Part shown: piece by piece, positions 12,214-36,814 of the stretch
Numbering within the stretch: position 1 is the stretch's first letter
Layout: each line of letters begins with the position of its first letter
Origin: Candidatus Undinarchaeales archaeon
GTDB taxonomy: Archaea > SpSt-1190 > JASMDC01
Direction: 5' to 3'
NCBI GenBank assembly: GCA_030753015.1
Contig: JASMDC010000026.1
Coordinates: forward strand, 1 to 49,548
DNA: 49,548 nucleotides
The notes under the pieces: generated by a model
Database searches by the model: none
The model's input: only the letters and a program-made list of their open reading frames with translations
What the model was told of the DNA's origin: nothing
Translations under genes and position numbers: made by a program

Positions 12214-13307
12214 CGTGGCCGGGGGAAAAGCTGATAATGATGATGCGTAAAGGAGAGCCGATGGCGGTGATTGTGGGCATTGTGGATTATTTTCGTGCCA
12301 TGTGCCTTGTCACCGTATTGGGTCTTCTGTTGGCGACTCCTGTCCTTGCGAGCGAGACCGTCGTCCGCATGGACTGGGAGCTCATTATCCATCCCGACGG
12401 CATGGTGCATGTCATACAGGTCGCGAACGTCACAGTGGCCGCTCCGGACGAAATACTTTCGGACATAATCTTCACCGTCCCGTGGGATGTGGATGATGAG
12501 GGTCTCATTGCATTCGATCATACCGCTGCCTCGGCCGTGCCAGTGGTCATCGAACCCCTTCCATCCGGGAATGTGGCCATACTCTCACTGGACTCACCTT
12601 TGGTTTACGGCGAGCACCGTGTGCTCTGGATCGAGTATGACACTGTTCAACCGACCACGAAACAGGGCGCGTCCTGGACGTTCTCCACTACCATCCCCGT
12701 GGTAGGGGGTTCGACTGTCGTAGTTTCGCTCCCCGAGGGTGCCGCTATGGAGAGCGTGACGAGTGATACTCCACCAACGCGCATATCGGACATCAACGGT
12801 TCATTGAGCGTTCGGTGGGACGAGCTTGAAGGCGACCGTTTCGCGATAGGGCTTGGGTACATGACACGTGTTCGTGATGAACCATTAGTGCCAGTACCTT
12901 CGAATACACCCACAACTCCGCACGCGACGACGCCCCCGACCGGGACCTCACGTCCTGTAGCATCATCCGCTGCGGTCCCGTCGATTACCTCTTGGACACC
13001 GGTACCCTACGAACTGGTCCTTTTTGTGGCAGCGTTGTTCATTCTAATCATAGTACCCCGTGTATGGCGCGCCGGCGGTCCGTTACAACGGGTGTACTCG
13101 ATACTCAATGAACGAGAGCGGCTCATCGTCGACCTTCTATGGGAGGAGACGGGTCCGCTTAGCCAAGTCACCATCGGACGTAGGACAGGGCTCTCCACAT
13201 CCACGGTATCGAACATCGCCAGAGAGCTCGAGATACGGGGCATACTTGAGCGGATAAAAGAAGGGAAGCACGTCAGGGTGACCCTCGCTAGGGAATATCG
13301 TCGGTGA
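12210..13307 (+). CDS. Membrane-anchored winged-HTH regulator with an extracellular domain (COG2512-like); start may be ATG 12261 or 12300
   Basis: Signal peptide, ectodomain, PT-rich linker and TM, then LNERERLIVDLL...LSQVTIGRRTGLSTSTVSNIARELEIRGILER wHTH. GTGA overlap with the upstream gene. Confidence 0.85.
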   Translation: MTWPGEKLIMMMRKGEPMAVIVGIVDYFRAMCLVTVLGLLLATPVLASETVVRMDWELIIHPDGMVHVIQVANVTVAAPDEILSDIIFTVPWDVDDEGLIAFDHTAASAVPVVIEPLPSGNVAILSLDSPLVYGEHRVLWIEYDTVQPTTKQGASWTFSTTIPVVGGSTVVVSLPEGAAMESVTSDTPPTRISDINGSLSVRWDELEGDRFAIGLGYMTRVRDEPLVPVPSNTPTTPHATTPPTGTSRPVASSAAVPSITSWTPVPYELVLFVAALFILIIVPRVWRAGGPLQRVYSILNERERLIVDLLWEETGPLSQVTIGRRTGLSTSTVSNIARELEIRGILERIKEGKHVRVTLAREYRR

Positions 13308-13407
13308 AACCAGCGAACGGATCGCTCCGCACCGTCCAATCCACTTCTCGTACCGTCCACACCAATCTACTTGAACCGGAACGGTCATACCATATTGGGG
13401 ACTGGTA

Positions 13408-17856: not shown

Positions 17857-20628
17857 ATGAGGCAGAGGTACATTATCCTGTTGTTGATAACCCTCTCGCT
17901 CCTCGCTCCGTTCGCCGGGGCGGTGGCCGCCGAGAGCATCCGTGAGGAGGTGACATTGACACGGCTCAACCGATTGGAGGCAACTGTCGAGTTCATCTTC
18001 TCCAAACGACAGATGGACACGATCCAAGAAGAACATGTGAGAATGATCTGTAATCGGGCCCACTTCTTATCATGCGATGCAGTTGTCGATAGGCTGCATA
18101 ACGCTATCACGGTTACCGCCTCGATGCGACCTTCCATCAACATAGAATCCGTAGAGGACGCGGATGGAGGTAAGCTTCGTGCGATATTCGCTCACAGGTA
18201 CGCACCCCTTCAGCATGTACTTGCCACACGAGTGAGCACCCCGAACACGCACCTCACCATCCACTATCCTACCCATACATTCTCCTTCGATAAACCCGTG
18301 ATGGAGGAGATGAGGAACACCTTCACGGTGACCTTTGAGCACCAGCCTTTCCCGTTCGATTTCGGTACGACCCTCACGAGCTCGAATGAGGATCTGATCG
18401 TTGGCGATACTATTGACATCCCGGAGATACACGGAGAGGTATGCTATGCTGCTCTCTTCTTCGGTACAACGAAGGTATCCCATGCGACGACAGTCGGCTG
18501 TCTCAAGATGTATCTGCCCAGCGGAGGAGCACCGACCGGGGTCGAACCCACCATCCATGTCCTCTCCTATTCGAAGGACAAGGTGGAGTATTCGACCTTC
18601 GGCCCGGAGGACGTTCCCATCGAGCCCTCGTCCATGGACCTCACCCTTACGCTCGAGCAACGCTTGACCAAGCTCGGCCGTCCGGTTCGCATCGGCATCA
18701 CCACCGATGAGGAAACCGAATGGTGTGAGGTGGTAATCATGGACAGCCTCCTCAATCCTCTCGGCACGGTGAGGTACGAAACGTGCGACGAGATACTCGT
18801 GGGCACTAGAACATCGTGGCTGCCCGGGCTCCATTATTTCAGGGTGACCGTTCACGCAGGTTCCAAGCATGCATCTGCGTCAGAATCCGTTACGCTCGAA
18901 CCTTCCGGCCACGAGGAAGGCCCTGGATTCGATGTGGAGAAGGATGTGTTCACAGCCGGCGAGTCCGTGACCCTGCATTCCTCTTTCCGTGGTAGGGGCC
19001 TCTACTGCACGACCCGTCTCTATGATCTCGAGTACAACCTCGTCTCGGAGGTCGACTCTTTCGGATGCGAACGCGCCACGGTTGATCTGGACGAGACACT
19101 TGCGGCAGGCAGTTATATCATAAAGACCGATATGTACGAGAGGGGACGGCTCAAGGGATTCGAGTCTACAATCATCCAGATCAAACCATGGAGCCCCCTT
19201 CCGGGGACACTCATGGAGCGGCTCTGTACTGGTTCGTTCTTCAGGTTGGAGGATGAACGCATACCGTGTCTCGTACCCGGAAGGACCTGTACACCGACCT
19301 CGCTCCAATTACCGCTGTGTTTGTGCTTCGACAAGAACGGTAACGTGAAGGACAGCTGTAACTATGCGGAGGTATGTACAAAGGACGGTTGTCGGGAGCG
19401 TGCGATCCCCCCCTATACCGTCATCATTGACGGGACCAAGTGCATCGCAAGGCGTGGGACCCACGTACTGCCATGCGTCGGACCTGGAGAGCTCTGCTCG
19501 GATTCATGCTTATGCGTGGACAGGTTCCGCTCACCCATCTCTACATGCCAGGAGAACTCGCTCTGCACACCGACAGGTTGTAGCAAACCGGAGATCGTTT
19601 TCGATGTGGAGGACGTGGAGCCGGTCTCCGCGCGCCGTTCGGATCTCGCATCTGGGATAGATTTGACATGGCGTGGTGTGCTCAAATACCATGACCGTAT
19701 TACGGCCGGAGAGGGATTCACCGTTCGCTCACGTCTCGGAGACGCAGAAGAGAGCGCGACCATCGAGCCGGTGGGTGATGGCCGTGTGACGGTCTCCACG
19801 CACTTGGCAACACCACTCAAGGAGGGAGAGACGGAGGCCTATCTCCTGTTCGAGAGGGAAGAGGCCAAGCTCTTGGTCAAACGCCAGTTCTCGGTCCAGT
19901 ACGATGATCCGGGATTGCTGTTCGAGATCGTGGACGTCGAGCCGGAGGCGCTCGACGCCGAACGGCTGCGTGGTGAGCAGTCGCTGCGTGTGCGTATGCG
20001 GGTGCTTGACGAGCAAGGTCATAAGGTCGTGTCACTCCCCATCTCGGCGTTCGATATGAGTGTCGACGGCGTGCTTGTCCGCTCGATCTCGGCGAAGTTC
20101 ATCGACGACATGTGGAACGTGGTCGGGACGCTCTGGGCAGATGACCTCCCTCCAGGACCGAGGCGGCTGACCCTGTCCGTGGACCACCTCGGACGATCAC
20201 GAAAGATCGAACGCAGCATTGATGTGATGCGGAAAGCACCCCTAGACGTGAGCATCATGAAGGTCGATCCGGGTACGAAGCAGAAGCCGCTCTTCCTCAT
20301 GATCGTCGGGATCGGGTTCGACATGGACGTCTACTTGGAGCTCCAAGGGTCCGAGGGCCTCACCAAGAACGATGTAACCATCACGCTGAACAACAAGGAC
20401 ATATCCGAGACAATAACCTACATCGTGAGTACGGCCAAGGGGCCGAAGATCCACCTCTCGAACGTCCGCCTCTGCCCCGACCATCCACCTAGACCGAACA
20501 GCGAGATACCTTTCGAGGTTCAGATACGAAAGGGGGATGAGACTGCTAGCGATAAGACCCGACTGGTCGTCCGGGGGAATCCCGGCGATTGGTCGAACCT
20601 GGGACAGACGGGGTGTGATGCCCGATGA
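17857..20628 (+). CDS. Secreted multi-Ig-like protein with two internal Cys modules
   Basis: MRQRYIILLLITLSLLAPFAGAVAA signal peptide (start revised from 17779). It has repeated beta-sandwich-like segments, two PC..PG..C...CLC.D.......C.....C...GC modules and three [ED][IV].[DK]V[ED]P-initiated repeats. Confidence 0.85.
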   Translation: MRQRYIILLLITLSLLAPFAGAVAAESIREEVTLTRLNRLEATVEFIFSKRQMDTIQEEHVRMICNRAHFLSCDAVVDRLHNAITVTASMRPSINIESVEDADGGKLRAIFAHRYAPLQHVLATRVSTPNTHLTIHYPTHTFSFDKPVMEEMRNTFTVTFEHQPFPFDFGTTLTSSNEDLIVGDTIDIPEIHGEVCYAALFFGTTKVSHATTVGCLKMYLPSGGAPTGVEPTIHVLSYSKDKVEYSTFGPEDVPIEPSSMDLTLTLEQRLTKLGRPVRIGITTDEETEWCEVVIMDSLLNPLGTVRYETCDEILVGTRTSWLPGLHYFRVTVHAGSKHASASESVTLEPSGHEEGPGFDVEKDVFTAGESVTLHSSFRGRGLYCTTRLYDLEYNLVSEVDSFGCERATVDLDETLAAGSYIIKTDMYERGRLKGFESTIIQIKPWSPLPGTLMERLCTGSFFRLEDERIPCLVPGRTCTPTSLQLPLCLCFDKNGNVKDSCNYAEVCTKDGCRERAIPPYTVIIDGTKCIARRGTHVLPCVGPGELCSDSCLCVDRFRSPISTCQENSLCTPTGCSKPEIVFDVEDVEPVSARRSDLASGIDLTWRGVLKYHDRITAGEGFTVRSRLGDAEESATIEPVGDGRVTVSTHLATPLKEGETEAYLLFEREEAKLLVKRQFSVQYDDPGLLFEIVDVEPEALDAERLRGEQSLRVRMRVLDEQGHKVVSLPISAFDMSVDGVLVRSISAKFIDDMWNVVGTLWADDLPPGPRRLTLSVDHLGRSRKIERSIDVMRKAPLDVSIMKVDPGTKQKPLFLMIVGIGFDMDVYLELQGSEGLTKNDVTITLNNKDISETITYIVSTAKGPKIHLSNVRLCPDHPPRPNSEIPFEVQIRKGDETASDKTRLVVRGNPGDWSNLGQTGCDAR

Positions 20629-22463
20629 GCTTAGGAGTCGGCCACCGTGGTCAGTTCACGCTCATCGGTCTTGCAGCCATAGCACTCGTCGTGCTGATGA
20701 TCGTTATGTTCACTCTCAAGGGGACCGAGGCCGATCGTGACCGACGCATCACCGAGAGCGAAGCATCGGACATATCGCGGGTCCTTGAGAAAGAGACGCG
20801 GTTCCTCGAGGGTGTTCTTGAGGATGCTGTTGCGTCCGCCGTATTCGAGATGGGGCAGAACAGCGGGTACACCCTCGAGAACAGGCCCGGGCTAAAGCAC
20901 ATGGGCATCCCCTACCTGTTCTACCAGGGCCATGTGGTGAACGTACCTACCGTCACCGTCATGGAGGACATGCTCGCAGAAGAGGTGGAGCGGAGGGTCA
21001 CCAACGCCATCGAGAAGCACAAGGTACAGCTGCGAAAGGAGAAGCGTACCTATTCATTCGGTCATCCCGTCGTAGGGGGCATCATCGAGGAGACGGGATG
21101 TCGTCTCGACCTTAGTGTACCCATCGTTGTGGAGGCCGAGGACGGAACGATGCATGCATCGTCCACAATCGAGTTCACCCACGTGAGCCCTCTGCGCATC
21201 GGCTATTTACGGAAGCTGGCCGAGCAGTACGTACAGAACTACAACCAGCTCCGCTTCATGGAGATGGGCGTTCTTGCCGGGATCCGGGAGGACGCCCGTA
21301 TCTGGGAACCCCCAGGAAGGCTCATGCACTCAGTATCATGTAAGAATCCCCCATTCAAGGGGAAGGAGGAGATGGTGACGCCCTTCAGGGAGAACAGTCA
21401 GCTGTCGGTGGCACGTGAGCTCAAGCGCATCCGAAATCTCTTCCGTGAGGACCGCTACGTCGAGTGGAACCTCGACTTCAGGCCCACCGATACCGATTTC
21501 TCCTTCGTGGCCGATAACGATAAGTACGGGTACGAGACCGAGCGCATCTATCTAGTCCCCCAGATGCTCGCCCCCTTCTCCCCACGCTCGGACGTATGCA
21601 TCTCTCACTATGAGGTGACCTACGAGCTGAGCTGGCCGGTACAAGTATCCCTTATCGACCTCCTTCCCACGGCAAAAGTAGTAGGGGGTTCGGGATCCGC
21701 CCTCATCAAACCGCTCGAGTTCCAGTTCTATCTGGAGCCGTACCTCGGGACGAACGAGGACGGATCAGTGAACACGCGTGCCGTGAACGAGTCGGTCGAC
21801 GCACCTTCAACGGTCGATAGCAAATGCGCGGGTTCATGCAAACTAGATCTGACATTCACCAACTCCAACAACGGACGGGTATGGCTCGATACATGTGCCT
21901 ACACCTACGACGGTAGCAGGCTGTACGAGGAAGAGATCACATGCGGAGTGCACACGCTGGTCGCGGCCGATGCCACAGATCCTACCCTTGGGAAGCTGAT
22001 CAAGAGGGTGAACCTCCAGAACACGCTCAAGGAGACCTACACGATCCCGCCGGCGATAACGGTGGAAGGGACAGTGTACGAGGAACAGCGGACCTACTGT
22101 GAGATGTCTGGTACCCTTACTTCACCGAACAACGTACCGATCGTGGCCCGTGGCGGTGCACCGCCTGCTTACATCGAGGTGCTCCTAGTACCATTGGAGG
22201 TCGGTCTGGGCGAGGTCATGTACGCAGCGGCCGATGATAAGGGACACTACTCGTTCCCCCAGGTGACACCTGGTGAGTACTGGCTCGTCGCCCGCTCCAC
22301 TCCTGATGCTGATGGGCATCCTCTCATCGCAATTGATCCTGAAGGTAGAATAGTCACTATAAGTGCTGACTCTCGTCGAATAGACGTCATCATGAAGCCG
22401 CTACAGATAGCGTTCGTTCATGGTAAGTACGAGAGAGTCTCGGAGGTGAGTGACGCGTGCTGA
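20625..22463 (+). CDS. Large class III signal peptide (type IV prepilin-like) protein with a C-terminal carboxypeptidase-regulatory-like beta-sandwich
   Basis: HRG|QFTLIGLAAIALVVLMIVMF prepilin-type N-terminus, then an amphipathic helix; C-terminal ADDKGHYSFPQVTPGEYWLVA. ATGA overlap with the upstream gene. Confidence 0.8.
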   Translation: MSLGVGHRGQFTLIGLAAIALVVLMIVMFTLKGTEADRDRRITESEASDISRVLEKETRFLEGVLEDAVASAVFEMGQNSGYTLENRPGLKHMGIPYLFYQGHVVNVPTVTVMEDMLAEEVERRVTNAIEKHKVQLRKEKRTYSFGHPVVGGIIEETGCRLDLSVPIVVEAEDGTMHASSTIEFTHVSPLRIGYLRKLAEQYVQNYNQLRFMEMGVLAGIREDARIWEPPGRLMHSVSCKNPPFKGKEEMVTPFRENSQLSVARELKRIRNLFREDRYVEWNLDFRPTDTDFSFVADNDKYGYETERIYLVPQMLAPFSPRSDVCISHYEVTYELSWPVQVSLIDLLPTAKVVGGSGSALIKPLEFQFYLEPYLGTNEDGSVNTRAVNESVDAPSTVDSKCAGSCKLDLTFTNSNNGRVWLDTCAYTYDGSRLYEEEITCGVHTLVAADATDPTLGKLIKRVNLQNTLKETYTIPPAITVEGTVYEEQRTYCEMSGTLTSPNNVPIVARGGAPPAYIEVLLVPLEVGLGEVMYAAADDKGHYSFPQVTPGEYWLVARSTPDADGHPLIAIDPEGRIVTISADSRRIDVIMKPLQIAFVHGKYERVSEVSDAC

Positions 22464-25400
22464 AACGGCCACACGGCCAAAAAAAGTATGCATTGGTATT
22501 CTTACTACTGTTCATCATATCGACCTCTGCCCAGGCGGGTCTCATACCAATCTCCGATAAGTACGCGGGTGGCGCAAAGAACATGTGCAAGACCTGCATC
22601 CAGTGCGTGGACACCGAGGGGGAGGAGCAAAAGAGCTGTCTGATGGGATGCCTGAAAGCAGGTGTCGACCTGCTGCTCGGACCCCTGTGCAACAAGATGT
22701 GCAAGGACAGCAAGATATGCAACGGTCTGTGCGGCAACTGTATCCCATGCGCGTTCGAGAAAGGGGATGCGGCCGAGAAGTGCCTTGTGAAGTGCGTTGG
22801 TGAAGCTCTCATAATCGGACCTATCTGTGGTAATGTGTGCAATCAGACCGTAAGCCAGGACTGGATGAACGGTGCAGAGAAGTGCGAGGGTGCATGTACA
22901 GAGTGCGCCTCGTGCGTGTTCGAGGAGGGTGGTGAAGCCCAGGAGAAGTGCGCGCTCAACTGTGTCGTGAAGAACATCCTTCTCAATCCGCTCTGTGGAA
23001 AGGCCTGCTCGAAGGCCGGTGGTGATCCCAAGGATTGGGAGATTAAGGAAAGTGACTCTGCAGATGAAAAAGCGAAGAAGAAGGAGGCTGCAAAGGAAGG
23101 CGCCAAGGATGTTGGCGCATGCGAGAAGATCTGCTCGACAGCCATCGAATGCGCTCCCTGTGCCTTTAAGACGACAGGCCGTGATAAGGCAATGTGCGGG
23201 GTCTCGTGCGTTGTCGGTAACTTCCTCTGTGAGAAATCATGCAGGAAGATATGCGACGATCCGAAGCAATATCCGACAGAGGCGGAGAAAGCAGAGGAGA
23301 AGAAGGACGACAAAGACGGTAAGAAGAAGCCGAAGATGAAGGATTGTACAAGTAATTGCCTTGACATCTGTGGTACCTGCTCACAATGTGCGAACCAGAA
23401 GACCGAGGCAGGCTTGAAAGAATGCATGATAAGGGAGTGCTTGGGCAAGAAGCTGATCAGCGCCCTGTGCAGCAACCTCTTTGTGGGCCCCATGGTGCAG
23501 AAGTGCCTCGAGTGCGGGACGTGCGCGATGGAGCCCGAGGAGAACCGAGCGGCATGCCTTAAGGACTGTGTCGGGAGGCAGCCATTGGCCTTCGACATCT
23601 GCGAGACCGTGAGCTGTGATCCCATCTGCTCGGGCCAGCGTACTGAGGAATGCCGTCAGAAGTGCGGAGGGAGCAGCACATGCATAGACGTGTGCATCCA
23701 GGACTGCAAGGTCGAGTGCCTGGACCTTTGTCACGCATGTGGTAAGTGTGGTTTCGAGAGCACGAAAGAGGCAATGCACGAGTGCACCATCCGCTACTGT
23801 ATACGCCCCTTCATGATGACACCCATCTGCGAGGACTATTGCTCTGAAGTAGTAAAGGGACTGCGGCCGGAGAACTGCAAGGCAATATGCATGACATGCG
23901 AGGATGCTATCTTCTCCGTAGATTGTGTGACCAGAAAGAGTCAGGTGCGGCCCCTTCTTGTGCAATGCATGTTCCGGGACGTGTGCGATGAGCGATGCGA
24001 CGAACATTTCGAGTCGGTACAGGAGGCGGACGAGTGCAAGGGTAACTGCGATAAATGCAAGCACTGTGCGAATGAGGATGACTATAATGTCCAGAAACAG
24101 TGCATGGAGGACTGCTTCGGTTCCCTGTCAGTGAAAGCCGAGTGTTCGGGCCTCTGCGTTGAGTGGGGAGTGACCGCGGGCGACGCGACCCTCAGGTGCC
24201 GTAGCCTGTGTGCGGCCTGCGTGCGGTGCGATGGGGAGACGGACCCGGCAAAGAAGAAGATCTGCCTCCGCAACTGCACGATGACCCAGATGGAGGATTA
24301 CTTCGGTGAGCGGTGCGACAGCGTGTGCCAGGACCAGGACGATAAGCCCACCTGTCGTGACAAGTGCATGAAATGCGATAGCTGCCCGTTCGAAGGCGAT
24401 GGACAGAACATCACGACATGCATCTTGAACAAGTGCGTCGACTCCATCTCGGTAGCACGGCCCATCTGTGAGGACGTATGCGCCAACGAGCAGAACAAAG
24501 CAGGCTGCATTCAGGGATGCGTCAAATGCCCGTCTTGCGTAGATCTCGATACACGGCGGAAACGTCTTGACTGTTTCACCGAATGCGTTGCACCGGACAT
24601 CCTCGGTAGTCAATGCGACTCGCTCTGTGTGGACAGACCCAATGCCACCGGATGCAAGCAACGGTGTCGAAATTGTCACCTGTGCATGGACAAGACCGGC
24701 CAATCACGTGGGGAGTGTCTTGAACGATGTGCAGACCGGGGACAACTTCGTTCTTCATGTGAAGGCCATTGCGAGACTGCCAAGGATCTGATCTATTGCC
24801 AGAGCGCATGTATGACCTGCCCCCAGTGCGATAAGCTCGAGGGCACGGAGCTTGATTCGTGCATACAGGAATGCACCGGCATAATCACACGGCAGATGCT
24901 CTTTGACACGTGCGATGACCTCTGTGCCTCATATAATGACCCGGAGCGCTGTAAGGCGGCATGCGATGAATGCACCGACTGCGACATGGGAGCCGGGCAG
25001 TACGAGTGCCTGCAGGACTGTGTGGATAAGACTGATTCGGGGCTGGACTTCTCCGATAAAGAGAAGGAACGTCGTGAGAAGCTGAAGAAAGGGCTGCTGT
25101 CCGGAGTCTGTGACCTCATGTTCGGCAATATCTGGGACATGTTCTCGTGTGACCTAGTATGTGCAATGGGGGGTCCTTGTCCCATCCCTGACCAAAGGTA
25201 TCTTCTCAAATGCCCCGAGACCGCACAAGAGAACCTCTACCTCTACTATTCAGACCTCATCACCTATTTCGAGAACGTTGCAGAGTTCTATGCGAATATG
25301 GAGGCGGCTCTGGATGCAATACTCTTGGGCACAGTGGGAATGTGCGGGATGTGCAATTACCAGCTGGCCATGATATCGGGTGCTTACAGCACGTGTAGCG

Positions 25401-28400
25401 GCGTCTGGAATCCGACGCCCTTCGGCGCAGCGACCATCCCATGGAACGAGTGGATGTGCGACATCGCCGGCGTAACCAACTGCCAGTCGCAGGTATGTCT
25501 CCCAGGGGGGAAGGTATCCACCTGTCCGCAACTGTGCTCCTACGGAGTGTGCCACTACAACACGTTAACGGGCACAATCGCCCCCGGAACGCCATTCTGC
25601 TGCGCACCATGCACAGCTGGTTGCTGCATGTCATCATGGATTTCAGTCCCATCGGTTACCAGTCATGTCAATCCTCCTGGAATGAAGGCATGCCACTCCT
25701 TCCTTCATGAGGCTGACGATTCGTGCACCATGGACGGACTCTGGTGGCGCAAGGTCGTCGATGCCCCTGCTCTGCGAAATCCCTGCTACGTTACTATCAA
25801 GATAACCGAGCTACGTAACTATGTCCACACCCTACGCGCAGAGATCATCCCCGACATAATCATGCAGATACGAGCGCTGCGTGCCAACGCCCGTAGGTGC
25901 ACGGTCCGAGTCACTTGCTCATCGAACATCAAGATCTACCTGGACCTGCTCGAGGAGATCTGGGACCGGGCCAACCACGTGGACGGCTGGGATACCAAGA
26001 AGTTCGAGGACGAGACCAACAAGTTCACTCTCGCCATGAAGGACTACATGGCAGATATCGGTTCCGGTGGCGGGGGCTTCTCGTTCAGCGGGGACGCCAA
26101 AGCGTGGACTAACTTCAAGAACGGGATCAGTGTGACCGCGTCCGCATACATGGACATAACCTCTGGCGGCAGCTTTGAGAAGTACATCGTATGGGTGCCA
26201 GACTACAGCCCTGCCTTGTGTCTTGTCCCAACGGGGGCAGCCACTAGCGCGGGCACAACTGCTGCCTCGAGCGTGATAGACAAGGTGAAGAAGAAGGCTA
26301 AAGATGGTGCCACTGATGCCGTGAAGAGCACTTTCGGTGTAAAGCAGATGCAGGCCATCTCCGAGTACCATACTAAGCTACTGACCATGTCAATGACCTC
26401 TGTGTTCGCCGGCGAATCAGGTGCACCAGGTGTTACATGTAACTTAGGCTTTCCTGCTCAATGCTTCCCCTCGTTCCCCATCGCATGGCACCTGGTAGAA
26501 GGGCAGAACCTCGGAGAGGATCTCGTGTTCAACTTCCCCGTGCTCCCGAAGTGCGGTGTCGAGGCCTTCGGCAAGGCGATGCCCGGTGACGCCTTCTGGC
26601 ATTCCCAAGAATGTTTTCTATATCGGTCATCCTCGTCCGATCTTGGTTCGATGGGTGAGGAAGAGGAGGAACCATGGGAGGAGGAGGAGGAAGAAGAGGA
26701 AGAAGAATGGGAAGAGGAAGAGGAAGTATGGGGCGAGGAAGAAGAAGAGATCGATGAGGAGGAGGAGATCGATTGCTACGGACTTGCCGATCTTACTCCA
26801 TGCTACAATGACCGGGGTATCTGCTGTAATGAGGTCTGCGTCCCAGGGGCGGACGAGTGCATAACAACGGAAGAGGAGTGCATCGCAAAAATCGATGGGG
26901 AGACCTGCTGGGATGGCGATGCCCTCTGCTGCTTCGAGACATGCATCCCGAACGCTACAACATGTGGTACCGGTTCGGCCGAATGTTACGGCCTACGCGA
27001 TAGGACCCCGTGCTCGGCCGGGCTCTGCTGCAACCAGCAATGTATCGCCGATGCGCTCGCTTGTAGTGGTACAACACCCGACTGCCTTGGAAAAATAGAC
27101 CAAATGTCGTGCGCCGATGGAGAGGGCATCTGCTGCCGAGAGGCGTGCATACCGGGAGCTGACTCCTGTGCTGTCGTTCTGGGGTGCGAGGAAGGCCTTG
27201 ATGGTGTCGCCTGTGCTGGAGGTACTTGTTGCGATACCTATTGTGTACAGGGTGCAACGTCATGTGGGGCCTATTTAGACGAATGTGTTGATGCGGAGGA
27301 CCTCACGCTGTGCACAGGAAATGGTCTGTGCTGCAGAGAAAGGTGCATCCCGAGTGCCACGTCTTGCGGAGGATCCGTTCATCCGCCCGTTCCGGATGAG
27401 ATAGCTGCAACCTGCGGAAAAGCATGCGAAGAGGATTATGCGAGCCCGTACTACTGTCATCCGACTGAAGGGATGTGTGCATGCAGGACGGAGACCGGGC
27501 CACGGTTCATAGAGGAGATCCTCTGCACACCGCGGGTTTCACGACGTATGGTCAGGAACCTTATGCGGTGCTGTGAGCGACATGAACTCGATGAGATGGA
27601 TATCTGCTACTCGACACAGAGCGAAACGGGCTTCTGTTGCCAGGGTGCGTTCTATGAGGTGCCCATCGACCTTTCCTGTATCGATGATGCACCCGTGATG
27701 GAGATCGCCTCCATTGCCTGGGAAGCCGATGGACGTGAAGTGCTCTCTAGGGTCGCTGGTGAACCGGTCAACCTGACCGTCGTGCTCAGGAACACTGGAA
27801 AAACGCTAGAGAACGGCGACCTGTCTTTCCGTATCGACGCAAGTGATGAAAGACTTGTGGAAGAGGACCGGCATGGCATCACTGTGGTAGGGGACAGCGT
27901 AGAGCGCTTCATACATCCCGTTATACCCGAACGTAGGCTTGCCGGTACGGCCCTCGATGGACGAGCCCTTCTTGGCTACCTCAATCTTCAGGTGAGTTCC
28001 AACTACACACGATTATACCTATTAGATGACGATACCATCGATGTGACCGAAGGTCACATCGAAAAGGAGGGCTTACGGAGCGATTATGTCCTTGCAGGTG
28101 ACACGGTTACCGGAGTAGCCTCTGTAGTGTCCACCCGTGACGAGCCCGTAGTGGTCATATTATCTGTTTCCCTGATGGCCGATGGTACGGAGATCGCGGG
28201 TACGCGGAGGAGCGAACTCATCACACTCGAAGCTGGTGCTACAGTCACTATAGGATCCATGCAACATGTCATTGGTGCGATAGATGTAGCAAAGGAGCTC
28301 GGTATCCTCGTGGAGGTCATCGGTCAGGCAGGAGAGGTTATTCAGTACAAGCGCCTCGACGAGGATGTCTACAATGATGCGGTTCGAACGGTGCTCTCAC

Positions 28401-28957
28401 CGTTCCTAAACATCAAGAAGGTCGCCTGGACGGACGCTGACGGGAGCCTGCTGGAGCGTGTGTTCGAGGGGAGACTTGTACAACCGGAAGTGACTGTCGT
28501 CAATCCGCTCGCGATGAGGTTCCGCGGGACAGTGGAGGTCATCGTGAAGGACGAATCAGATGTGAAGCTCGTTACCGGACGTATGACGCTCACGCTGGAA
28601 AAGGGACATTCGGCCGTCATCAAGTTACCGTCGTTCACGACCGATGTCGCCGAGATAATCGCGCTCGGTGAAGGAGAGACGACGGTGCAGAAGGCCAACA
28701 AGCGGTACCATGTCTACGTCAATGCAACTGATGACGAGCTCTCCTGGCTGGATCTGGAGGACACGGTCTTCGTGCTCGACTCACTTGTCCTCTCGGATAT
28801 GGATAAGGTCGATGTATCGGCCACGAGCGAGTTCCAGGACTGTAAACTTAGGGTGACGTGCACGAACTGCAACGTCGGTTGCGAGATCAAGGTACGGGAA
28901 TGCCGGCCGGTGTTCAACCTGTGCCGCTGTTATCAGTGCTCTTACTCGAACGATTGA
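22457..28957 (+). CDS. Giant secreted Cys-rich repeat protein, paralog 1 (2166 aa)
   Basis: GGAGGTGA SD at 22442-22449 and a signal peptide ending SAQA|GLIP. Then ~15 8-Cys repeats, a helical core domain, a poly-Glu linker, six CC repeats, three Ig/CARDB-like domains and an 8-Cys C-terminus. Confidence 0.92.
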   Translation: MLKRPHGQKKYALVFLLLFIISTSAQAGLIPISDKYAGGAKNMCKTCIQCVDTEGEEQKSCLMGCLKAGVDLLLGPLCNKMCKDSKICNGLCGNCIPCAFEKGDAAEKCLVKCVGEALIIGPICGNVCNQTVSQDWMNGAEKCEGACTECASCVFEEGGEAQEKCALNCVVKNILLNPLCGKACSKAGGDPKDWEIKESDSADEKAKKKEAAKEGAKDVGACEKICSTAIECAPCAFKTTGRDKAMCGVSCVVGNFLCEKSCRKICDDPKQYPTEAEKAEEKKDDKDGKKKPKMKDCTSNCLDICGTCSQCANQKTEAGLKECMIRECLGKKLISALCSNLFVGPMVQKCLECGTCAMEPEENRAACLKDCVGRQPLAFDICETVSCDPICSGQRTEECRQKCGGSSTCIDVCIQDCKVECLDLCHACGKCGFESTKEAMHECTIRYCIRPFMMTPICEDYCSEVVKGLRPENCKAICMTCEDAIFSVDCVTRKSQVRPLLVQCMFRDVCDERCDEHFESVQEADECKGNCDKCKHCANEDDYNVQKQCMEDCFGSLSVKAECSGLCVEWGVTAGDATLRCRSLCAACVRCDGETDPAKKKICLRNCTMTQMEDYFGERCDSVCQDQDDKPTCRDKCMKCDSCPFEGDGQNITTCILNKCVDSISVARPICEDVCANEQNKAGCIQGCVKCPSCVDLDTRRKRLDCFTECVAPDILGSQCDSLCVDRPNATGCKQRCRNCHLCMDKTGQSRGECLERCADRGQLRSSCEGHCETAKDLIYCQSACMTCPQCDKLEGTELDSCIQECTGIITRQMLFDTCDDLCASYNDPERCKAACDECTDCDMGAGQYECLQDCVDKTDSGLDFSDKEKERREKLKKGLLSGVCDLMFGNIWDMFSCDLVCAMGGPCPIPDQRYLLKCPETAQENLYLYYSDLITYFENVAEFYANMEAALDAILLGTVGMCGMCNYQLAMISGAYSTCSGVWNPTPFGAATIPWNEWMCDIAGVTNCQSQVCLPGGKVSTCPQLCSYGVCHYNTLTGTIAPGTPFCCAPCTAGCCMSSWISVPSVTSHVNPPGMKACHSFLHEADDSCTMDGLWWRKVVDAPALRNPCYVTIKITELRNYVHTLRAEIIPDIIMQIRALRANARRCTVRVTCSSNIKIYLDLLEEIWDRANHVDGWDTKKFEDETNKFTLAMKDYMADIGSGGGGFSFSGDAKAWTNFKNGISVTASAYMDITSGGSFEKYIVWVPDYSPALCLVPTGAATSAGTTAASSVIDKVKKKAKDGATDAVKSTFGVKQMQAISEYHTKLLTMSMTSVFAGESGAPGVTCNLGFPAQCFPSFPIAWHLVEGQNLGEDLVFNFPVLPKCGVEAFGKAMPGDAFWHSQECFLYRSSSSDLGSMGEEEEEPWEEEEEEEEEEWEEEEEVWGEEEEEIDEEEEIDCYGLADLTPCYNDRGICCNEVCVPGADECITTEEECIAKIDGETCWDGDALCCFETCIPNATTCGTGSAECYGLRDRTPCSAGLCCNQQCIADALACSGTTPDCLGKIDQMSCADGEGICCREACIPGADSCAVVLGCEEGLDGVACAGGTCCDTYCVQGATSCGAYLDECVDAEDLTLCTGNGLCCRERCIPSATSCGGSVHPPVPDEIAATCGKACEEDYASPYYCHPTEGMCACRTETGPRFIEEILCTPRVSRRMVRNLMRCCERHELDEMDICYSTQSETGFCCQGAFYEVPIDLSCIDDAPVMEIASIAWEADGREVLSRVAGEPVNLTVVLRNTGKTLENGDLSFRIDASDERLVEEDRHGITVVGDSVERFIHPVIPERRLAGTALDGRALLGYLNLQVSSNYTRLYLLDDDTIDVTEGHIEKEGLRSDYVLAGDTVTGVASVVSTRDEPVVVILSVSLMADGTEIAGTRRSELITLEAGATVTIGSMQHVIGAIDVAKELGILVEVIGQAGEVIQYKRLDEDVYNDAVRTVLSPFLNIKKVAWTDADGSLLERVFEGRLVQPEVTVVNPLAMRFRGTVEVIVKDESDVKLVTGRMTLTLEKGHSAVIKLPSFTTDVAEIIALGEGETTVQKANKRYHVYVNATDDELSWLDLEDTVFVLDSLVLSDMDKVDVSATSEFQDCKLRVTCTNCNVGCEIKVRECRPVFNLCRCYQCSYSND
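22586..25021 (+). repeat. About 15 degenerate in-frame repeats, C-x3-C-xn-C-x3-C-x2-C-x2-C-x8/11-C-x3-C (paralog 1)
   Basis: Counted by eye in the translation, e.g. CDSLCVDRPNATGCKQRCRNCHLCMDKTGQSRGECLERC. Confidence 0.85.
26657..26767 (+). repeat. GAR-codon poly-Glu tract (paralog 1)
   Basis: EEEEEPWEEEEEEEEEEWEEEEEVWGEEEEEIDEEEE. Confidence 0.9.
26774..27367 (+). repeat. Six ~33-aa 6-Cys repeats, C....D...C...G.CC...C[IV]PGA..C (paralog 1; paralog 2 copies at ~33080-33673)
   Basis: Read directly from the translation. Confidence 0.85.
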
Positions 28958-28966
28958 GGTCAGGCC

Positions 28967-31900
28967 ATGGTACATCGACCTGTCGTCGGTGTGGTCGTTG
29001 TCATGCTCATTCTAACGGCGGCGACCGCGGGCCTCATCCCAATGTCACAGAAGGCATCAGCGAGCGCAAAGAACCTGTGCAAGACGTGCATCGACTGCGT
29101 CGGTACCGAAGGGGAGGAGCAGAACGCCTGTCTCATGAACTGCCTGCAGGAAGGTGTCATGACGTTCCTTGGCCCCCTGTGCCAGAAGATATGCAAGGAC
29201 AGCCAGATGTGCTCGAACCTGTGCGGCAAGTGCGTACCCTGCGCTTTCGAGAAGGGCGAGGGTGCGGAGAAATGCCTCATCAAATGCGTTGGCGAATCGG
29301 TCATTCTCGGACCGCTCTGCGGTGAGCTTTGCTCGTCAGTGACCGCGCAGTCATGGATGAAGGACGCTGATAAGTGCACAGGTAAGTGCACGGAGTGTGC
29401 CTCTTGCGTTTTCGAGGACAGCGCGGACGCTCGCAAGGAGTGCGCCCTGACCTGTGTTGTGGAGGACCTGATCCTGGGCCCTCTGTGCGAGAAGGCCTGC
29501 TCAAAAGCAAAGGATGCGGCCGGGTGCACGGAAACCTGCCTGAAGGTCGCGGACTGTGCGGAATGCGCGTTCAAGGACACTGACAAGGAAAAGGAGCTGT
29601 GCGCTCTCGCATGCGTCGGGGTCAACTTCGTGTTCGATGTCGTGTGCGAGAAGGCCTGCAACAAGACCGACAATCCCGGTAACTGCACAGCGACCTGCAT
29701 GAAGATCGCCAAGGACTGTGCCCCCTGCGCAATGAAGCCCACCCCGGACACTCGCGAGGAGTGCCTGATCAGGACGTGCGTCGGATTCGAGATCATCGGC
29801 CCCCTGTGCGAGAACCTCTTCGTCGGCGACATGATTGAAAAGTGCAAGGAATGCGGAGCGTGCGCAAGGGAACCGGAGGAGAACCGCGATGCCTGCGTAA
29901 AGGAATGCGTTGGCAGGCAGCCGGAGGCTTTCGACGTGTGCGAACAGGTCAGCTGCGATCCCATATGCGGTGGCCAGCGTACTGCCGCGTGCAGGGAGCA
30001 ATGCGGTAGCGATACTGCCTGTATCGAGAGTTGCAAGCAATCGTGCATGGACGAATGCAAGCAGCTATGCGGTAGCTGTGGACAGTGCGGGTACGAGAAG
30101 AGCCGTGAGGCAATGCATGAGTGCACCATCAAGTATTGCGTCCAGCCGTTCATGATGACACCCATATGTGAGGATTTCTGTAGCAACTCGATTATGGGTC
30201 TCCAGCCACAGGAATGCGTGGCCATATGCAACTCGTGCGAGGAATGTACAATGTCCGTGGACTGCGTCACAGGTACCGCTCAGGTCGAGCCATGCCTAAA
30301 GGAATGCATGTTCGAGGATGCATGTTCAAGTAACTGCGACCGTATGTACAGCTCGTCAAAGAACGTCGATGACTGCAAGAAGAACTGCCAGAGCTGTAAG
30401 CACTGCGCCAATGAGGACAATGTCACGATGCAGCCTTGCCTCATGGAGTGCTTTGATTCACTCGACGTGAAGGAAGAATGCTCGGGTCTCTGCCAGCTGT
30501 GGGGTGTCGCGAGCGGTGATAGTATGACACGATGCCGCTCATTGTGCTCGTCGTGTATCAAATGCGATGGCTTACCCGGAGAGGCAAAGATAGGGTGCCT
30601 ACGCAACTGCACGATGGGACAGATGGAGGACTACTTCGGCGACCAATGTGACAGTATATGCAGGGACCAGAACGACACTGCGTCGTGTCGCCAGAAATGC
30701 ATGCATTGCGACAGCTGCGTGTTCGAGGGAGATGGTCAGAACATGACCTCCTGTATCCTCGATAAATGCATCCCTCCATTGGACGTGGCTAAACCCATAT
30801 GTGATGAGATATGCTCCAACGAGCCCGACGTCGATGCATGTGTCGCGTCCTGTCTGGCGAAACCGGAGTGCGTACACCTCGACACGCGACGCAAGCGTCA
30901 GGACTGTTACACTGAACACGTCGCGCCCGCTCAGCTGGGGCCCTCGTGCGACCAGCTCTGCGAGGAGCTACCGGAACCCGACAAGTGCAAACGTCGGTGC
31001 CGGAGCTGTAATCTCTGCATGAACGACCGGGGCACTAATCGTGATGGATGCCTGGAGCGATGCGCCGACCGGGGGCGAAGAGGTGACTCGTGCGAGGACC
31101 ATTGCGCTTCGGCAAAGAATCCTCGGACATGCAGGAGCGCCTGCATGACATGTCCGATGTGCGACCGGCTCGAAGGGGAGGCACTACAGTCGTGCATCGC
31201 TGAGTGCACGGGAGAGGTCACGGCCCAGATGACGTTCGACATGTGCGACGATCTTTGTTCGACATACAACGATTTCGACCGTTGCATGGCAGCATGTGGT
31301 GACTGCGATCAATGTTCGATGGGGCCCGATCAGTACGGGTGTCTGGAAGAGTGCGTTGATGCCACCGATCCCGGCCTCGACTTCTCTGCCAAGGAGAAGG
31401 AGAAGAAGGAGAAGGCAAAGAAGGCTCTCCTCTCGGGCATGTGCGACCTCGCGTTCGGCAACTTCTGGGATGCGTTCTCCTGCGATCTGGTATGCTCCAT
31501 GGGAGGCGTGTGCCCCATCGTGGATGAGCGGTACCTTCTCAAGTGTCCGCCAATGGCGCAGGAGAACCTCTACCTCTACTACAGCGACCTCATCACCTAC
31601 TTCGAGAACGTGGCCCTGTTCTACGAGAACATGGAGAAGGCCCTGGACGGTATCATGTTGGGAACGGTGGGCCTGTGCGCCATGTGCAATTACGAGCTAA
31701 TTAATCTCCAAGCCACCTACGGCACCTGTTCGGGTATCTGGAATCCCACACCGTGGGGTGCGGCGACAATCCCCTGGAACGAGTGGATGTGCGACGTCTC
31801 CGGCATGATCAGTTGCCAACCACGTATCTGTTCGACGGTACCAGGTGTCAACCGGTGCCCGCAGCTCTGCTCCACGGCCACGTGTCACCACACGATAGCG

Positions 31901-34900: not shown

Positions 34901-35266
34901 ATCGATATGGACGCTTCGGCCATCGTCCAGACAGTACCGTTCACCGCAACCCTCACAGAGGCCTTTGCCGTTGGACCCGATGGTTCGGCAGTCCTCAAGA
35001 AGGAGGACAGCGTGTACCGCGTCAGGGTGACCGCCAGGACCGATGCCATAACCTGGGCGGACATCGACGACCATGTGTTCGTGCTCGAGACGCGTGCCCT
35101 CGGCGAGGGCGGGACCTCGGATGTCATGGCCTCGAGCGAGTTCGAGGGTTGTAGCCTCAGCGTCAGCTGCACCGCGTGCACCGAGGGATGTGAGATCACG
35201 ATCAAGGACTGCGAGCCGGTCCTCAACCTTTGCAAATGTGTGGAGTGCACATTCTCGAGAGGATGA
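28967..35266 (+). CDS. Giant secreted Cys-rich repeat protein, paralog 2 (2099 aa)
   Basis: GAGGT SD at 28956-28960 and a signal peptide ending ATA|GLIP. Collinear with paralog 1 throughout, with repeats at ~29078-31354 and poly-Glu at 32972-33073. Confidence 0.92.
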   Translation: MVHRPVVGVVVVMLILTAATAGLIPMSQKASASAKNLCKTCIDCVGTEGEEQNACLMNCLQEGVMTFLGPLCQKICKDSQMCSNLCGKCVPCAFEKGEGAEKCLIKCVGESVILGPLCGELCSSVTAQSWMKDADKCTGKCTECASCVFEDSADARKECALTCVVEDLILGPLCEKACSKAKDAAGCTETCLKVADCAECAFKDTDKEKELCALACVGVNFVFDVVCEKACNKTDNPGNCTATCMKIAKDCAPCAMKPTPDTREECLIRTCVGFEIIGPLCENLFVGDMIEKCKECGACAREPEENRDACVKECVGRQPEAFDVCEQVSCDPICGGQRTAACREQCGSDTACIESCKQSCMDECKQLCGSCGQCGYEKSREAMHECTIKYCVQPFMMTPICEDFCSNSIMGLQPQECVAICNSCEECTMSVDCVTGTAQVEPCLKECMFEDACSSNCDRMYSSSKNVDDCKKNCQSCKHCANEDNVTMQPCLMECFDSLDVKEECSGLCQLWGVASGDSMTRCRSLCSSCIKCDGLPGEAKIGCLRNCTMGQMEDYFGDQCDSICRDQNDTASCRQKCMHCDSCVFEGDGQNMTSCILDKCIPPLDVAKPICDEICSNEPDVDACVASCLAKPECVHLDTRRKRQDCYTEHVAPAQLGPSCDQLCEELPEPDKCKRRCRSCNLCMNDRGTNRDGCLERCADRGRRGDSCEDHCASAKNPRTCRSACMTCPMCDRLEGEALQSCIAECTGEVTAQMTFDMCDDLCSTYNDFDRCMAACGDCDQCSMGPDQYGCLEECVDATDPGLDFSAKEKEKKEKAKKALLSGMCDLAFGNFWDAFSCDLVCSMGGVCPIVDERYLLKCPPMAQENLYLYYSDLITYFENVALFYENMEKALDGIMLGTVGLCAMCNYELINLQATYGTCSGIWNPTPWGAATIPWNEWMCDVSGMISCQPRICSTVPGVNRCPQLCSTATCHHTIAPYICCCGWPGCCPSYFATPSTTLHVNPTAMKTCHRFVHETDDACTMEGLWWRGVVEAPALRNPCHVVTKIAELKNYVHKFRTEILPDIIVQLRAMRANARRCTVRVSCSSNIKIYLDLLEEIWDRANHIDGWDTEKFEFETNKFTLAMQDFNEDINSGGSGFGFDFSGGAGWTNFKTGLSVGASAYFDNMQGKNPEKYLVWVPDYNPPYCVPGATGVATTAATTVAVDKVVDKLKKTLKEKMMEAVKETFGVRQIATLVAYHTELIAISLTNSFAGVAGVPGPWCTGGFPMTCIDAFPIRWHLVEGSNLGEDLVFKMPVIPSCGVEAFAKSMPGDAFWHYNECLLYQGHTPDPTGGDEEELEEELEEEEEVEEEELEEEEWEEEEEEFEEEVDCSDKEDLEPCFEGDGLCCNGECIPGAEACTTEGEEECAGAEEEAACGGGKGICCFGACVPGASGCGEEEDECAGENAGAPCDGGKCCEGRCVPGATGCSGTADCIKRPDGASCVNGTGMCCEQNCIPGAEACAVAPECQPGYDGLPCADGTCCDGVCVPGALSCGGYSHECVEGGDLSVCSGDGLCCRERCLPGATSCGGRPGGELPTDIAEVCTRACDEASGGDHYCHPTERMCTCRTTRGPVYVAEIPCAPRVSERLVAGLRRCCESKGMEEVDECYNEESETGFCCQGAFTEVPIEIECVKDAPVVEIASLAWMYGNRQVLSMVAGTTVNLTAVLRNTGKRLEDGDLSFRIDAEGERHLSRDEHHIAISGSSVRRVGLPIELEPRLAGGSLTALAILGYLNVQVSSEPIRLYVLAEDTVDVADGYFESSGERDYYVLAGDVVAAAAAVTSSKNESIEAVIEVVMTANGTELEATRTKKATTLERSATVTVRTPTRFIGEGNVGTELGMIVRVEGIGGEVLQYKRLEVDIYPDAVKIVSSPYLFLRDVAWRDDGGRRMERTYEGVQTKAEVTLHNPLAISFDGTVTVEVVDGQGNIVATGSRHAVIDMDASAIVQTVPFTATLTEAFAVGPDGSAVLKKEDSVYRVRVTARTDAITWADIDDHVFVLETRALGEGGTSDVMASSEFEGCSLSVSCTACTEGCEITIKDCEPVLNLCKCVECTFSRG

Positions 35267-35565
35267 TGGTGAGTACTGCTAACGATTCAATTCGTCGCCG
35301 AACGGGAAGGTGGGCGATTATCGGATTGTTATCGCTCATCATCATGATGAACACAGGACTCGCGGGCCTCATACCCTTGAGCGGGCAGTGGTCCGGAGCT
35401 GCCAAGGGCATGTGCAAGAGCTGCATCCAGTGCGCTAACATGGAGGGTGAGGAGCAGAAGGCCTGCCTCATGGAATGCCTGCGTGCGGGCGTCGGTTATC
35501 TCCTTGGTCCTCTCTGCGTCCTCATCGTCCTCGATCACGGGCTCCCGGTCGAAGCATGGTCCTGA
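35263..35565 (+). pseudogene. Truncated third paralog of the giant Cys-rich proteins (homology ends at ~35517)
   Basis: ATGA overlap with paralog 2. Signal peptide plus GLIPLSGQWSGAAKGMCKSCIQC...EGEEQKACLMECLRAGVGYLLGPLC matches both paralogs, then 15 unrelated residues and a stop. Confidence 0.85.
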
Positions 35566-36588
35566 TGTATACTGTTCACAATGCCCTTTCCAGTCGCCCC
35601 CTCCCGTCAGACCGACACCTTCGGTCCTCTTAGGCCCCTCTCCCCGTCCGATGTCCGTGTACACGCTCGGATCGGCCAAGGTGGCGATGACAGCGCGCAT
35701 TTCGGTCTGGAAGCTGGTGATGTCGTAGTCGTCGGTGGTGAACGACGCACCGATCGTGGACTCGAGCCTCTGAAGGTCCTCTTCGATGCGCTCTGGTGTC
35801 AATCCGCTAGCCGTGGCCTCGCGCACCCGTCCGGCCATGTCGTCCATGGTATCGGCGAGCTCGGGGAGGAGAGGGACCACGGTCCCCGCAAGGTAACCGT
35901 TTAGCTCTTCCACCGTCTGGGCAAGCTCGCATACGTTGGCATTCTTGCCGAAGGTGCATACATCGTTGATCGCATGTACCATCCGGGAGCATTCCAGCAC
36001 TTTCACAGGGGCCGGAAGGCTCTTGTCATGGGAATCGCAATCATGTCCCTTGCGTTCGGGGATGTTTTCGCAGAGGACGCATGAAGAGCTACTACCACTG
36101 CAACTGGCCTGTGCAGCGATTCCGCAGACTTTAGGGTCCACGATACTGGTCGGTGCTAGTTCAAGACCGCTCCCGCAATGAGGATAATCTGCCGAGATGA
36201 ACTCATCCCTTACCTGGTTGCATACATCACACTGTATCCGCAAGGCCTGGGTAAGAAGCCCCAGGTCTTCGCTCAAAGCACCGTAGAATGAATCCGCCCG
36301 CTCGTAGAACGCTTTACCCTCTTCGAGATAGTGCACGATGTTGATGTATGGTCGGGCCGAGCAGTCCATGAGCGCAGCGTTAAGGGGAACAGCAGTTTCA
36401 TTGATGATCACTCCCCCTCTGACGGAGAAGGGCATCTGACAAGCGCTACCGGTCATGTAATCGATGGGCATTGGCGAGGGTGTCGGGGTGGCCGGGCCCT
36501 CTTCACTGCACGTGAGCGATGTGATAACGAGAATACTGAGCAACAGGACCAGAGCATGATGCCTTGTCACGCCTAATCTCAAGTCCAT
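35512..36588 (-). pseudogene. Secreted (possibly lipoprotein) diverged homolog of the giant-protein core domain, 3'-truncated; the ORF runs on to 35329 through the antisense of paralog 3
   Basis: GGTGA SD before ATG 36588, TTATTAA box near 36659-36665 and a hydrophobic leader ending ITSLTC. It aligns by eye to the core domain of paralogs 1 and 2, and the last ~60 codons are antisense to paralog 3. Confidence 0.7.
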
Positions 36589-36814
36589 GTCATCATCACC
36601 GTTCCACGGATTACCAGGATACATCTATCCCTTCCTGATGTTGATACTGCCCACGGTAATTAATAAGGCTAATCCTTGGAGATCAGATTGGACTGCCGTA
36701 AGGCCGTTTACCCTTTCTAAACCTGAATCCCGCGGTTTCTAGGCACTACTGCTGACTTCTCGGAGTCTGAATGTGGTCGGTCGTTCAAGTCCGCAAGGAA
36801 ATGTTTTTAAGGTG

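Follow-up and report, generated by a model that had tools for sequence, protein, structure and literature searches.

How are more than a hundred cysteines, crowded into the first 800 or so residues of a single archaeal protein, held together, and can their partners be read from the sequence? The question is raised by a stretch of 49,548 nucleotides from a Candidatus Undinarchaeales archaeon (contig JASMDC010000026.1 of assembly GCA_030753015.1, positions 1 to 49,548 of the forward strand; hereafter the window), in which two giant genes lie in tandem, one encoding P0001 (22457-28957 (+), 2166 aa) and the other P0002 (28967-35266 (+), 2099 aa). The two proteins are 57% identical to each other (1190 of 2092 aligned positions), and orthologs of P0001 elsewhere are 72-89% identical to it. 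We consider it probable that each giant devotes its N-terminal ~810 residues to an extracellular, all-alpha array in which antiparallel helical segments are stapled together by nested disulfides. A first-pass annotation of this DNA had placed a new-looking eight-cysteine helical repeat at 22586-31354 and had read a pattern of disulfide bonds from it; these limits are exact, the first falling on the codon of Cys44 of P0001 and the second ending the codon of Cys796 of P0002.

The eight-cysteine unit

Cysteine accounts for 124 of the first 900 residues of P0001 (13.8%) and for 125 of those of P0002 (13.9%), and the gaps between successive cysteines in the arrays cycle through 3, 8-14, 3, 2, 2, 10-11, 3 and 9-12 residues. 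The unit is ~49 aa long and can be written C-x3-C-x8-C-x3-C-x2-C-x2-C-x10/11-C-x3-C, its cysteines being numbered here C1 to C8; the stretch C1-x3-C2-x8(-20)-C3-x3-C4, present in units that retain all eight cysteines, is a cysteine motif of the alpha-hairpinin type. A hidden Markov model (HMM) built up from seven canonical units detects 16 copies each in P0001 and P0002, close to the ~15 first estimated; a seventeenth match in P0002, with an independent E-value (i-E) of 0.065, was discounted. The array of P0001 extends from Cys44 to Cys855 (22586-25021 (+)) and contains 122 cysteines in its 16 units, and that of P0002 extends from Cys38 to Cys796 (29078-31354 (+)) and contains 120. All eight cysteines are present in 85 of the 114 units aligned from ten family proteins, and when 36 units of the window and of a related locus (L007) are aligned, six cysteine columns are invariant and the other two are at least 90% conserved. 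Because the mean column identity between these units is only 29%, the array is old and not the product of a recent duplication of DNA. A glycosylation sequon at N651 of P0001 is conserved. The repeat is real and statistically strong.

Cysteines gained and lost as partners

To read the pairing we rely on the arrays of five proteins, P0001-P0005, which are 48-72% identical over this region. Their cysteine counts are even (122 in P0001, P0003 and P0005; 120 in P0002 and P0004), and of the 124 cysteine columns 118 do not vary. The remaining six constitute exactly three cross-helix pairs, 258 + 305, 484 + 500 and 691 + 710 in P0001 numbering. The first-pass annotation had noticed two of these pairs, and both are as it described them: in unit 13, the C5 and C8 of P0001 (C691 and C710) are replaced by K and H in P0002 and are missing from no other type, and in unit 9, the positions of C6 and C7 of P0002 (C427 and C443) are occupied in P0001 by A484 and L500, these two cysteines being missing from the P0001 type alone. 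The third pair, C258 and C305, occurs only in the P0001 type (P0001 and P0003), four residues before C1 and four residues after C4, and is one more rung on the helices of C1 and C4. Six columns picked at random would make up three designated pairs with a probability of ~8e-6, a figure that involves some circularity, since the same losses served in part to assign the partners; under a weaker null, in which the second column of each event need merely lie in the same unit, the probability is ~2e-4.

The same pattern is found in variant units. In all five proteins the LCxNLFVG unit keeps C1 and C4 and is without C2 and C3, as had been seen at first for the two in the window. The same six-cysteine variant (C1, C4, C5-C8) is also present in P0010 (37-44% identical) and in remote paralogs encoded on contig C51 of the host genome, the identities for these proteins taken together being only ~27-44%. 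P0010 also contains one four-cysteine half-unit, which consists of C5-C8 only, and a protein encoded on contig C27 of the host genome carries nine three-rung hairpins of the form C-x2-C-x3-C-x10-C-x3-C-x3-C. A block of 14 cysteines at residues 382-448 of P0001 can be read as a five-rung ladder together with the usual C5-C8 and C6-C7 pairs. The rule that cysteines come and go as the partners C1-C4, C2-C3, C5-C8 and C6-C7 appears well supported by these sequence comparisons, and the partners first proposed are upheld by the third covarying pair, the six-cysteine variant and the four-cysteine half-unit, with the reservation that the scheme has no place for two orphan cysteines in each chain. The pairing is visible from sequence covariation, and covariation signifies partnership; it does not distinguish S-S from S-metal-S.

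Predicted structure of the array

Units 13-15 of P0001 (residues 669-816; 24461-24904 (+)) were modelled with AlphaFold2, a prediction over two to three repeats having been suggested in the first-pass annotation; the input alignment was assembled from non-overlapping three-unit windows and the model was read for its secondary structure. The model is all-helical, with a predicted local distance difference test score (pLDDT) of 84.5 and a predicted template-modelling score (pTM) of 0.70. C1 and C2 lie in helices 2-6, 32-56 and 80-103, and C3 and C4 in short helices 13-20, 62-70 and 110-117, both CX3C motifs thus being helical; C5 and C6 lie in a kinked short segment, and the segments with C3/C4 and C5/C6 are 5-9 residues long. 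C7 and C8 share the long helices 32-56 and 80-103 with the C1 and C2 of the next unit. Because the helix of C7/C8 is predicted to run into that of the next C1/C2, the array would be continuous and its units would be neither separate beads nor independent hairpins. Hence, of the chained helical hairpins originally envisaged, the helices are reproduced by the model, and the independence of the chained units is not.

Structural neighbours of the three-unit model are wanting. A Foldseek search against the PDB gave no match at E<=0.001 (best 1xg2_B, E 1.2, TM 0.25), and a VIA-align comparison with 48,161 chains gave no meaningful neighbour, the best Z of 6.1 (a sigma-factor domain 2) being within the range of common helical arrangements for that tool. 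Among PDB sequences, the repeat profile matched best to OmTx3, a peptide of 23 residues, with an E of 0.26, which is not significant, and aligned to it over C1-C4.

The mechanism that we propose combines these elements. The first part of each unit would be an alpha-hairpinin-type hairpin, C1-x3-C2 ... C3-x3-C4, bonded C1-C4 and C2-C3, and the second would be a hairpin C5-x2-C6 ... C7-x3-C8, bonded C5-C8 and C6-C7. With four S-S bonds per unit, and from one to about five rungs in the variant units, the array would be one continuous and covalently braced helical scaffold. It would be elongated or rod-shaped, with a mechanical role, and would most likely serve as a protease- and shear-resistant stalk that presents, or is anchored by, the conserved central domain and the C-terminal domains of a protein that the marine archaeon secretes or displays on its surface.

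Disulfides or metal ligands

The location of the proteins bears on the state of their cysteines. Residues 1-27 of P0001 (22457-22537 (+)) resemble a signal peptide, with a basic n-region, a hydrophobic core and AQA followed by GLIP. In both P0001 and P0002 the N-terminus is basic, then hydrophobic, and ends in A-x-A before GLIP, and all five of P0001-P0005 have GLIP after the hydrophobic segment. Read by eye from the sequence, the N-termini of P0001 and P0002 appear to be Sec-type signal peptides, which would make the proteins secreted. Near-identical DNA is found in marine or seawater metagenomes (8 of 11 studies, with 14 runs holding at least half of the sampled words, among the matches listed), and the host genome encodes seven DsbA-like Thioredoxin_4 domains over the Pfam cut-off. 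Four DsbA-like frames were read, and their CPFC or CPYC sites come after a lipobox or membrane anchor and Pro/Thr linkers. Several DsbA-like exported proteins are encoded on contigs C82, C92, C63 and C59, with one or two Thioredoxin_4 domains each. Secretion, seawater and exported DsbA-like proteins together favour disulfides, the even cysteine counts of the P0001-P0005 arrays point the same way, and the partners are likely to be oxidised.

Several observations weigh against nested disulfides, and some of them would suit a metal. Two thiolates of adjacent helices that bind a single metal ion would show the same covariation as two bonded cysteines; the stretch C3-x3-C4-x2-C5-x2-C6 holds spacings that are also found in metal sites; and the repeat profile weakly matches 3lmf_A, a cysteine-lined helical protein, over C-x3-C-x8-C-x3-C-x2-C (C1-C5; E 0.51, not significant). 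The database labels 3lmf_A 'Uncharacterized protein', and we take it to be of the Csp/DUF326 kind. If the cysteines were metal ligands on the same helical pairing, the array would be a Csp-like Cu(I)-thiolate store or would hold structural Zn sites made of C1-C4 and of C5-C8, and its cysteine density of ~14% on predicted helices, CX3C motifs included, is in keeping with this. According to PMC5171941, the cysteines of Csp line the long helices of a rigid four-helix bundle that keeps the thiols apart, and eight of the Cu sites are same-helix CXXXC pairs; some Csp3 Cu(I) sites use cysteines of adjacent helices, so that cross-helix covariation alone is not decisive.

The cysteine losses in the archaeal arrays split the CX3C motifs and leave the other half in place (C7 without C8; C1 and C4 without C2 and C3), and a four-ligand metal site is hard to reconcile with a six-cysteine variant that keeps C1/C4 without C2/C3 in every member. 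In the model each unit comprises a single long helical segment and two short ones, as against the four long helices of the Csp bundle, and the segments that carry C3/C4 and C5/C6 are predicted to be no longer than 5-9 residues. Neither P0001 nor P0002 contains a Pfam family at E<=0.1, and none of 36 single units matches a Csp/DUF326 model at E<=10. The exported Csp1 and Csp2 carry twin-arginine translocation (Tat) signals, according to PMC5171941, whereas the twin arginine is not conserved in the archaeal family and is absent in both P0001 and P0002. In addition, the archaeal chains carry other cysteine repeats of a clearly extracellular type, and the habitat is seawater. Given that the losses split the CX3C motifs, that the cysteine segments are short and that the twin arginine is not conserved, we regard metal ligation as improbable and iron-sulfur (Fe-S) clusters as very improbable indeed. 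The first-pass preference for disulfides over metal clusters is sustained by secretion, seawater and the DsbA-like proteins, with the metal alternative made less probable, although the weak 3lmf_A match still speaks for it.

In the Fe-S alternative the eight cysteines would provide for two clusters per unit, and the array would be an extracellular electron conduit. The region C3-C6 indeed contains C-x3-C-x2-C and C-x2-C-x2-C spacings, which resemble radical-SAM and ferredoxin motifs. Against such clusters stand the lack of a ferredoxin or radical-SAM match in Pfam, the all-helical prediction, the units that lose two of four putative ligands and keep the other two, the lack of a conserved Tat motif and, again, the seawater habitat. 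The 2[4Fe-4S] ferredoxin was considered as a candidate and rejected, its C-x2-C-x2-C-x3-C-P spacing differing from that of the unit and no Pfam match being found.

Cysteines outside the scheme

The other observations that weigh against nested disulfides concern cysteines left over, and the supporting data themselves. No VKOR homolog was found in the host genome, which is 98.9% complete, and the AlphaFold2 alignment was shallow, with 13 rows from three paralog types. The arrays start with a five-cysteine unit (C4-C8; C51a also has seven-cysteine units), and the start unit of every array (P0001-5, P0008, P0010, C51a and C51b) keeps C4 without C1. Each chain has two orphan cysteines, in P0001 C44 of the start unit and the extra C490; the latter is present in P0001-5 and absent from P0010, whose array has an odd count of 125. 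Whole mature chains also have odd counts, 205-211. From the start-unit C4, the extra C490 and the odd count of P0010 it follows that at least one cysteine per chain lies outside the scheme. These orphans may be free, may be paired with each other or may link chains.

Disulfides of another connectivity would accommodate such cysteines, be it through bonds between units, a knotted fold without hairpins, or interchain ladders between the three paralogs. The orphan at every array start and the extra cysteine in P0001-5 are compatible with this alternative, as are the conservation of three paralog types in tandem and the order of units in C51a, in which a seven-cysteine unit follows the five-cysteine start unit as if orphans were paired across units; moreover, the model provides evidence of secondary structure and not of contacts. 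However, the three covarying pairs are each intra-unit, at the positions where nested antiparallel hairpins would have them, the one-, two- and three-rung variants keep an i/i+4 register on both helices, and there is a half-unit with C5-C8 alone. We thus judge another connectivity to be unlikely. For the nested disulfides that we prefer, a wider reading is conceivable, and we put it forward tentatively, as somewhat less probable than not being the case: a new braced alpha-helical fold with two disulfides per neighbouring helix pair would form a ladder-like stalk of ~800 residues, and the three paralogs, possibly linked through their orphan cysteines, would act as a surface fibre or attachment organ.

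Distribution of the family

The repeat has few relatives. A word-indexed search of 5.8 billion proteins returned three relatives for the repeat region, and the same three together with P0010 for the central domain. The HMM search that had been proposed at the outset retrieved, from 1.84 billion representatives, four proteins at E<=0.001 (two fragments, a protein of 821 aa with four units, and P0010). This representative library is incomplete with regard to the family, since it does not list full-length proteins of the P0001-5 type, for which local HMMER gives E-values of 1e-60 to 4e-93; its silence is hence incomplete proof of rarity. Among 41 genomes, the repeat profile was positive in two, the genome of the window and its one congener, that is, in its own genus only, and was negative in all 15 same-class genomes and all 24 other archaeal genomes. 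The ESM Atlas had no usable match for the repeat region, NCBIfam contained nothing meaningful for P0001 or P0002, and the impression of novelty is accordingly confirmed in every library searched (Pfam, NCBIfam, PDB and ESM Atlas). Among the papers listed, the literature searches yielded nothing relevant on archaeal cysteine-rich helical repeats, nor on giant or cysteine-rich proteins of Undinarchaeota. The eight-cysteine unit is a new and very narrowly distributed repeat family that reuses the known alpha-hairpinin principle.

Three tandem paralogs are present at L007, the third of them intact (22774 onward). In the window, the third paralog survives as a remnant at 35266-35517 (+), comprising the signal peptide, the start unit and the first CX3C helix and followed by unrelated sequence; its start overlaps the stop codon of gene 2 by one base, and it is homologous for ~84 codons only. 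The region thereafter contains an open reading frame (ORF) of 431 aa on the minus strand (35329-36624 (-)) and a DDE transposase gene (36835-38496 (+)).

More distant members are encoded elsewhere in the host genome. The C27 protein (P0009; C27:1933-2493 (-), in a frame of at least 1534 aa) is membrane-anchored and combines four eight-cysteine units with the nine three-rung hairpins and a coiled-coil-like region. Contig C51 contains two adjacent members as open frames of 2416 and 1681 codons (C51:36712-49005 (-)). One has the same overall architecture as the giants with, in addition, a block of beta-hairpin-like cysteine repeats of the form G-x-C-x-x-G-x-C, and the other has three eight-cysteine units directly before a C-terminal membrane anchor.

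The remainder of the giants and their surroundings

P0001 and P0002 share a common layout, in which the signal peptide and the ~810-residue cysteine array are followed by a strongly conserved central domain, a poly-glutamate linker, six six-cysteine units, regions rich in or free of cysteine, and a C-terminal cysteine cluster. The central conserved domain of P0001 (residues 863-1398; 25043-26650 (+)) has no family match and no usable match in the ESM Atlas, and its AlphaFold2 model, with a pLDDT of 44.6, is too poor for a structure search. The acidic poly-glutamate linker, read from the sequence, lies at 26651-26773 (+). The second repeat type, at 26774-27367 (+), is unrelated to the eight-cysteine unit; it consists of six units of ~36-40 aa with six cysteines each, of the type CC-x3-C-x-PGA-x2-C, and matches weakly by PDB profile to the LDLa chains (LDL-receptor class A) of LRAD3 (E 0.005-0.012, 16-17 bits), while Pfam is silent. 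An equivalent stretch of linker and six-cysteine repeats occurs in P0002, and P0010 has about twice as many six-cysteine units. The C-terminus of P0001 carries a conserved cysteine cluster (residues 2129-2161; 28841-28939 (+)), which is also found in P0010 and a C51 paralog; a cluster of the form C-x-L-x-V-x-C-x2-C-x3-C-E-I ... N-L-C-x-C-x2-C ends all family members, and no membrane anchor or sorting signal could be recognised there.

The gene of P0001 starts with GTG and overlaps by 7 nt the end of an upstream gene (20625-22463 (+)), the product of which has 612 aa. The latter gene overlaps both of its neighbours, and Pfam gives its product only a sub-threshold CarboxypepD_reg match; the N-terminus (basic, G-Q, then ~20 hydrophobic residues) resembles the class III signals of archaeal type IV pilin-like proteins. 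Further upstream, at 10261-17775 (+), three genes lie between genes that, judged by ORF sizes, are adjacent in the syntenic L007. They encode a protein of 650 aa, one of 365 aa with a C-terminal winged-helix/DUF7343 domain, and one of 1455 aa with three Kazal-type inhibitor domains (E 3.5e-18).

Pieces of the giant genes are found as 100%-identical contigs in three RNA libraries from two studies, which attests to their presence and is no proof of transcription. The host genome has a size of 3.85 Mb, with 98.9% completeness and 5% contamination, and all 15 same-class genomes sampled are of 0.6-1.2 Mb. The group may include a lineage with a large genome, or there may be a binning or classification problem, which would be worth a look; the assembly contains no 16S rRNA.

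Comparison with known systems

Nested disulfides on helical hairpins are known from several settings. The small Tims and the CHCH domain (twin CX3C and twin CX9C, respectively) are helix-loop-helix proteins with two nested disulfides, which occur as single hairpins in the mitochondrial intermembrane space and are oxidised by Mia40. The archaeal array differs from these in being tandem, a Pfam scan serving as the comparison for homology. With Csp it shares the many cysteines on helices, including CXXXC, and the weak motif-level match to 3lmf_A. Csp proteins, on the other hand, have free thiols in a four-helix bundle, bind Cu(I) and are Tat-exported or cytosolic, whereas the archaeal repeat has short predicted segments, pairwise turnover of its cysteines and a Sec-like signal.

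The closest systems by mechanism are the alpha-hairpinins and the Cs-alpha/alpha toxins (OmTx1-3 and kappa-hefutoxin), the motif of which is shared by the C1-C4 half of the archaeal unit. As described in PMC7191063, alpha-hairpinins have two CXXXC motifs on antiparallel helices, bonded Cys1-Cys4 and Cys2-Cys3, with OmTx1-3 as animal counterparts, and plant precursors can chain 5-12 modules. These are short peptides of 23-50 aa (the plant ones being cleaved from precursors) that function as antimicrobials, inhibitors or toxins, whereas the archaeal units stay within a protein of 2,100 aa, add a second hairpin of the CX2C...CX3C type and are predicted to continue their helices across unit borders; no sequence homology to the alpha-hairpinins was shown. 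Elongated alpha/alpha repeats with a disulfide that bridges the two helices of each repeat are represented by HcpB and HcpC of Helicobacter and by human COA7 (PMC8892353). Their bracing amounts to one disulfide per Sel1-like repeat of 30-36 aa, versus four per archaeal unit of 49 aa. The Sel1 profile has no match in P0001 or P0002 (Pfam, E<=0.1) and is not among the 13 weak families reported for the 36 single units; HcpB, HcpC and COA7 are absent among the Foldseek and VIA-align matches listed, which does not rule out a likeness.

The evidence does not support placing the eight-cysteine repeat in any of these families, because no profile matches it, its size and context are different, and a second type of hairpin is present in every unit. 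What we see is a family of giant, expressed-looking surface proteins, so far confined to one genus of uncultured marine archaea. If our reading is true, they would provide a natural case of disulfide connectivity that sequence covariation by itself reveals, and hence a clean test case for disulfide prediction as well as a scaffold idea for protein engineering. With four bonds per 49 residues over ~16 units, they would also exceed, in the density of regular disulfide bracing, every other helical repeat among the comparisons found.

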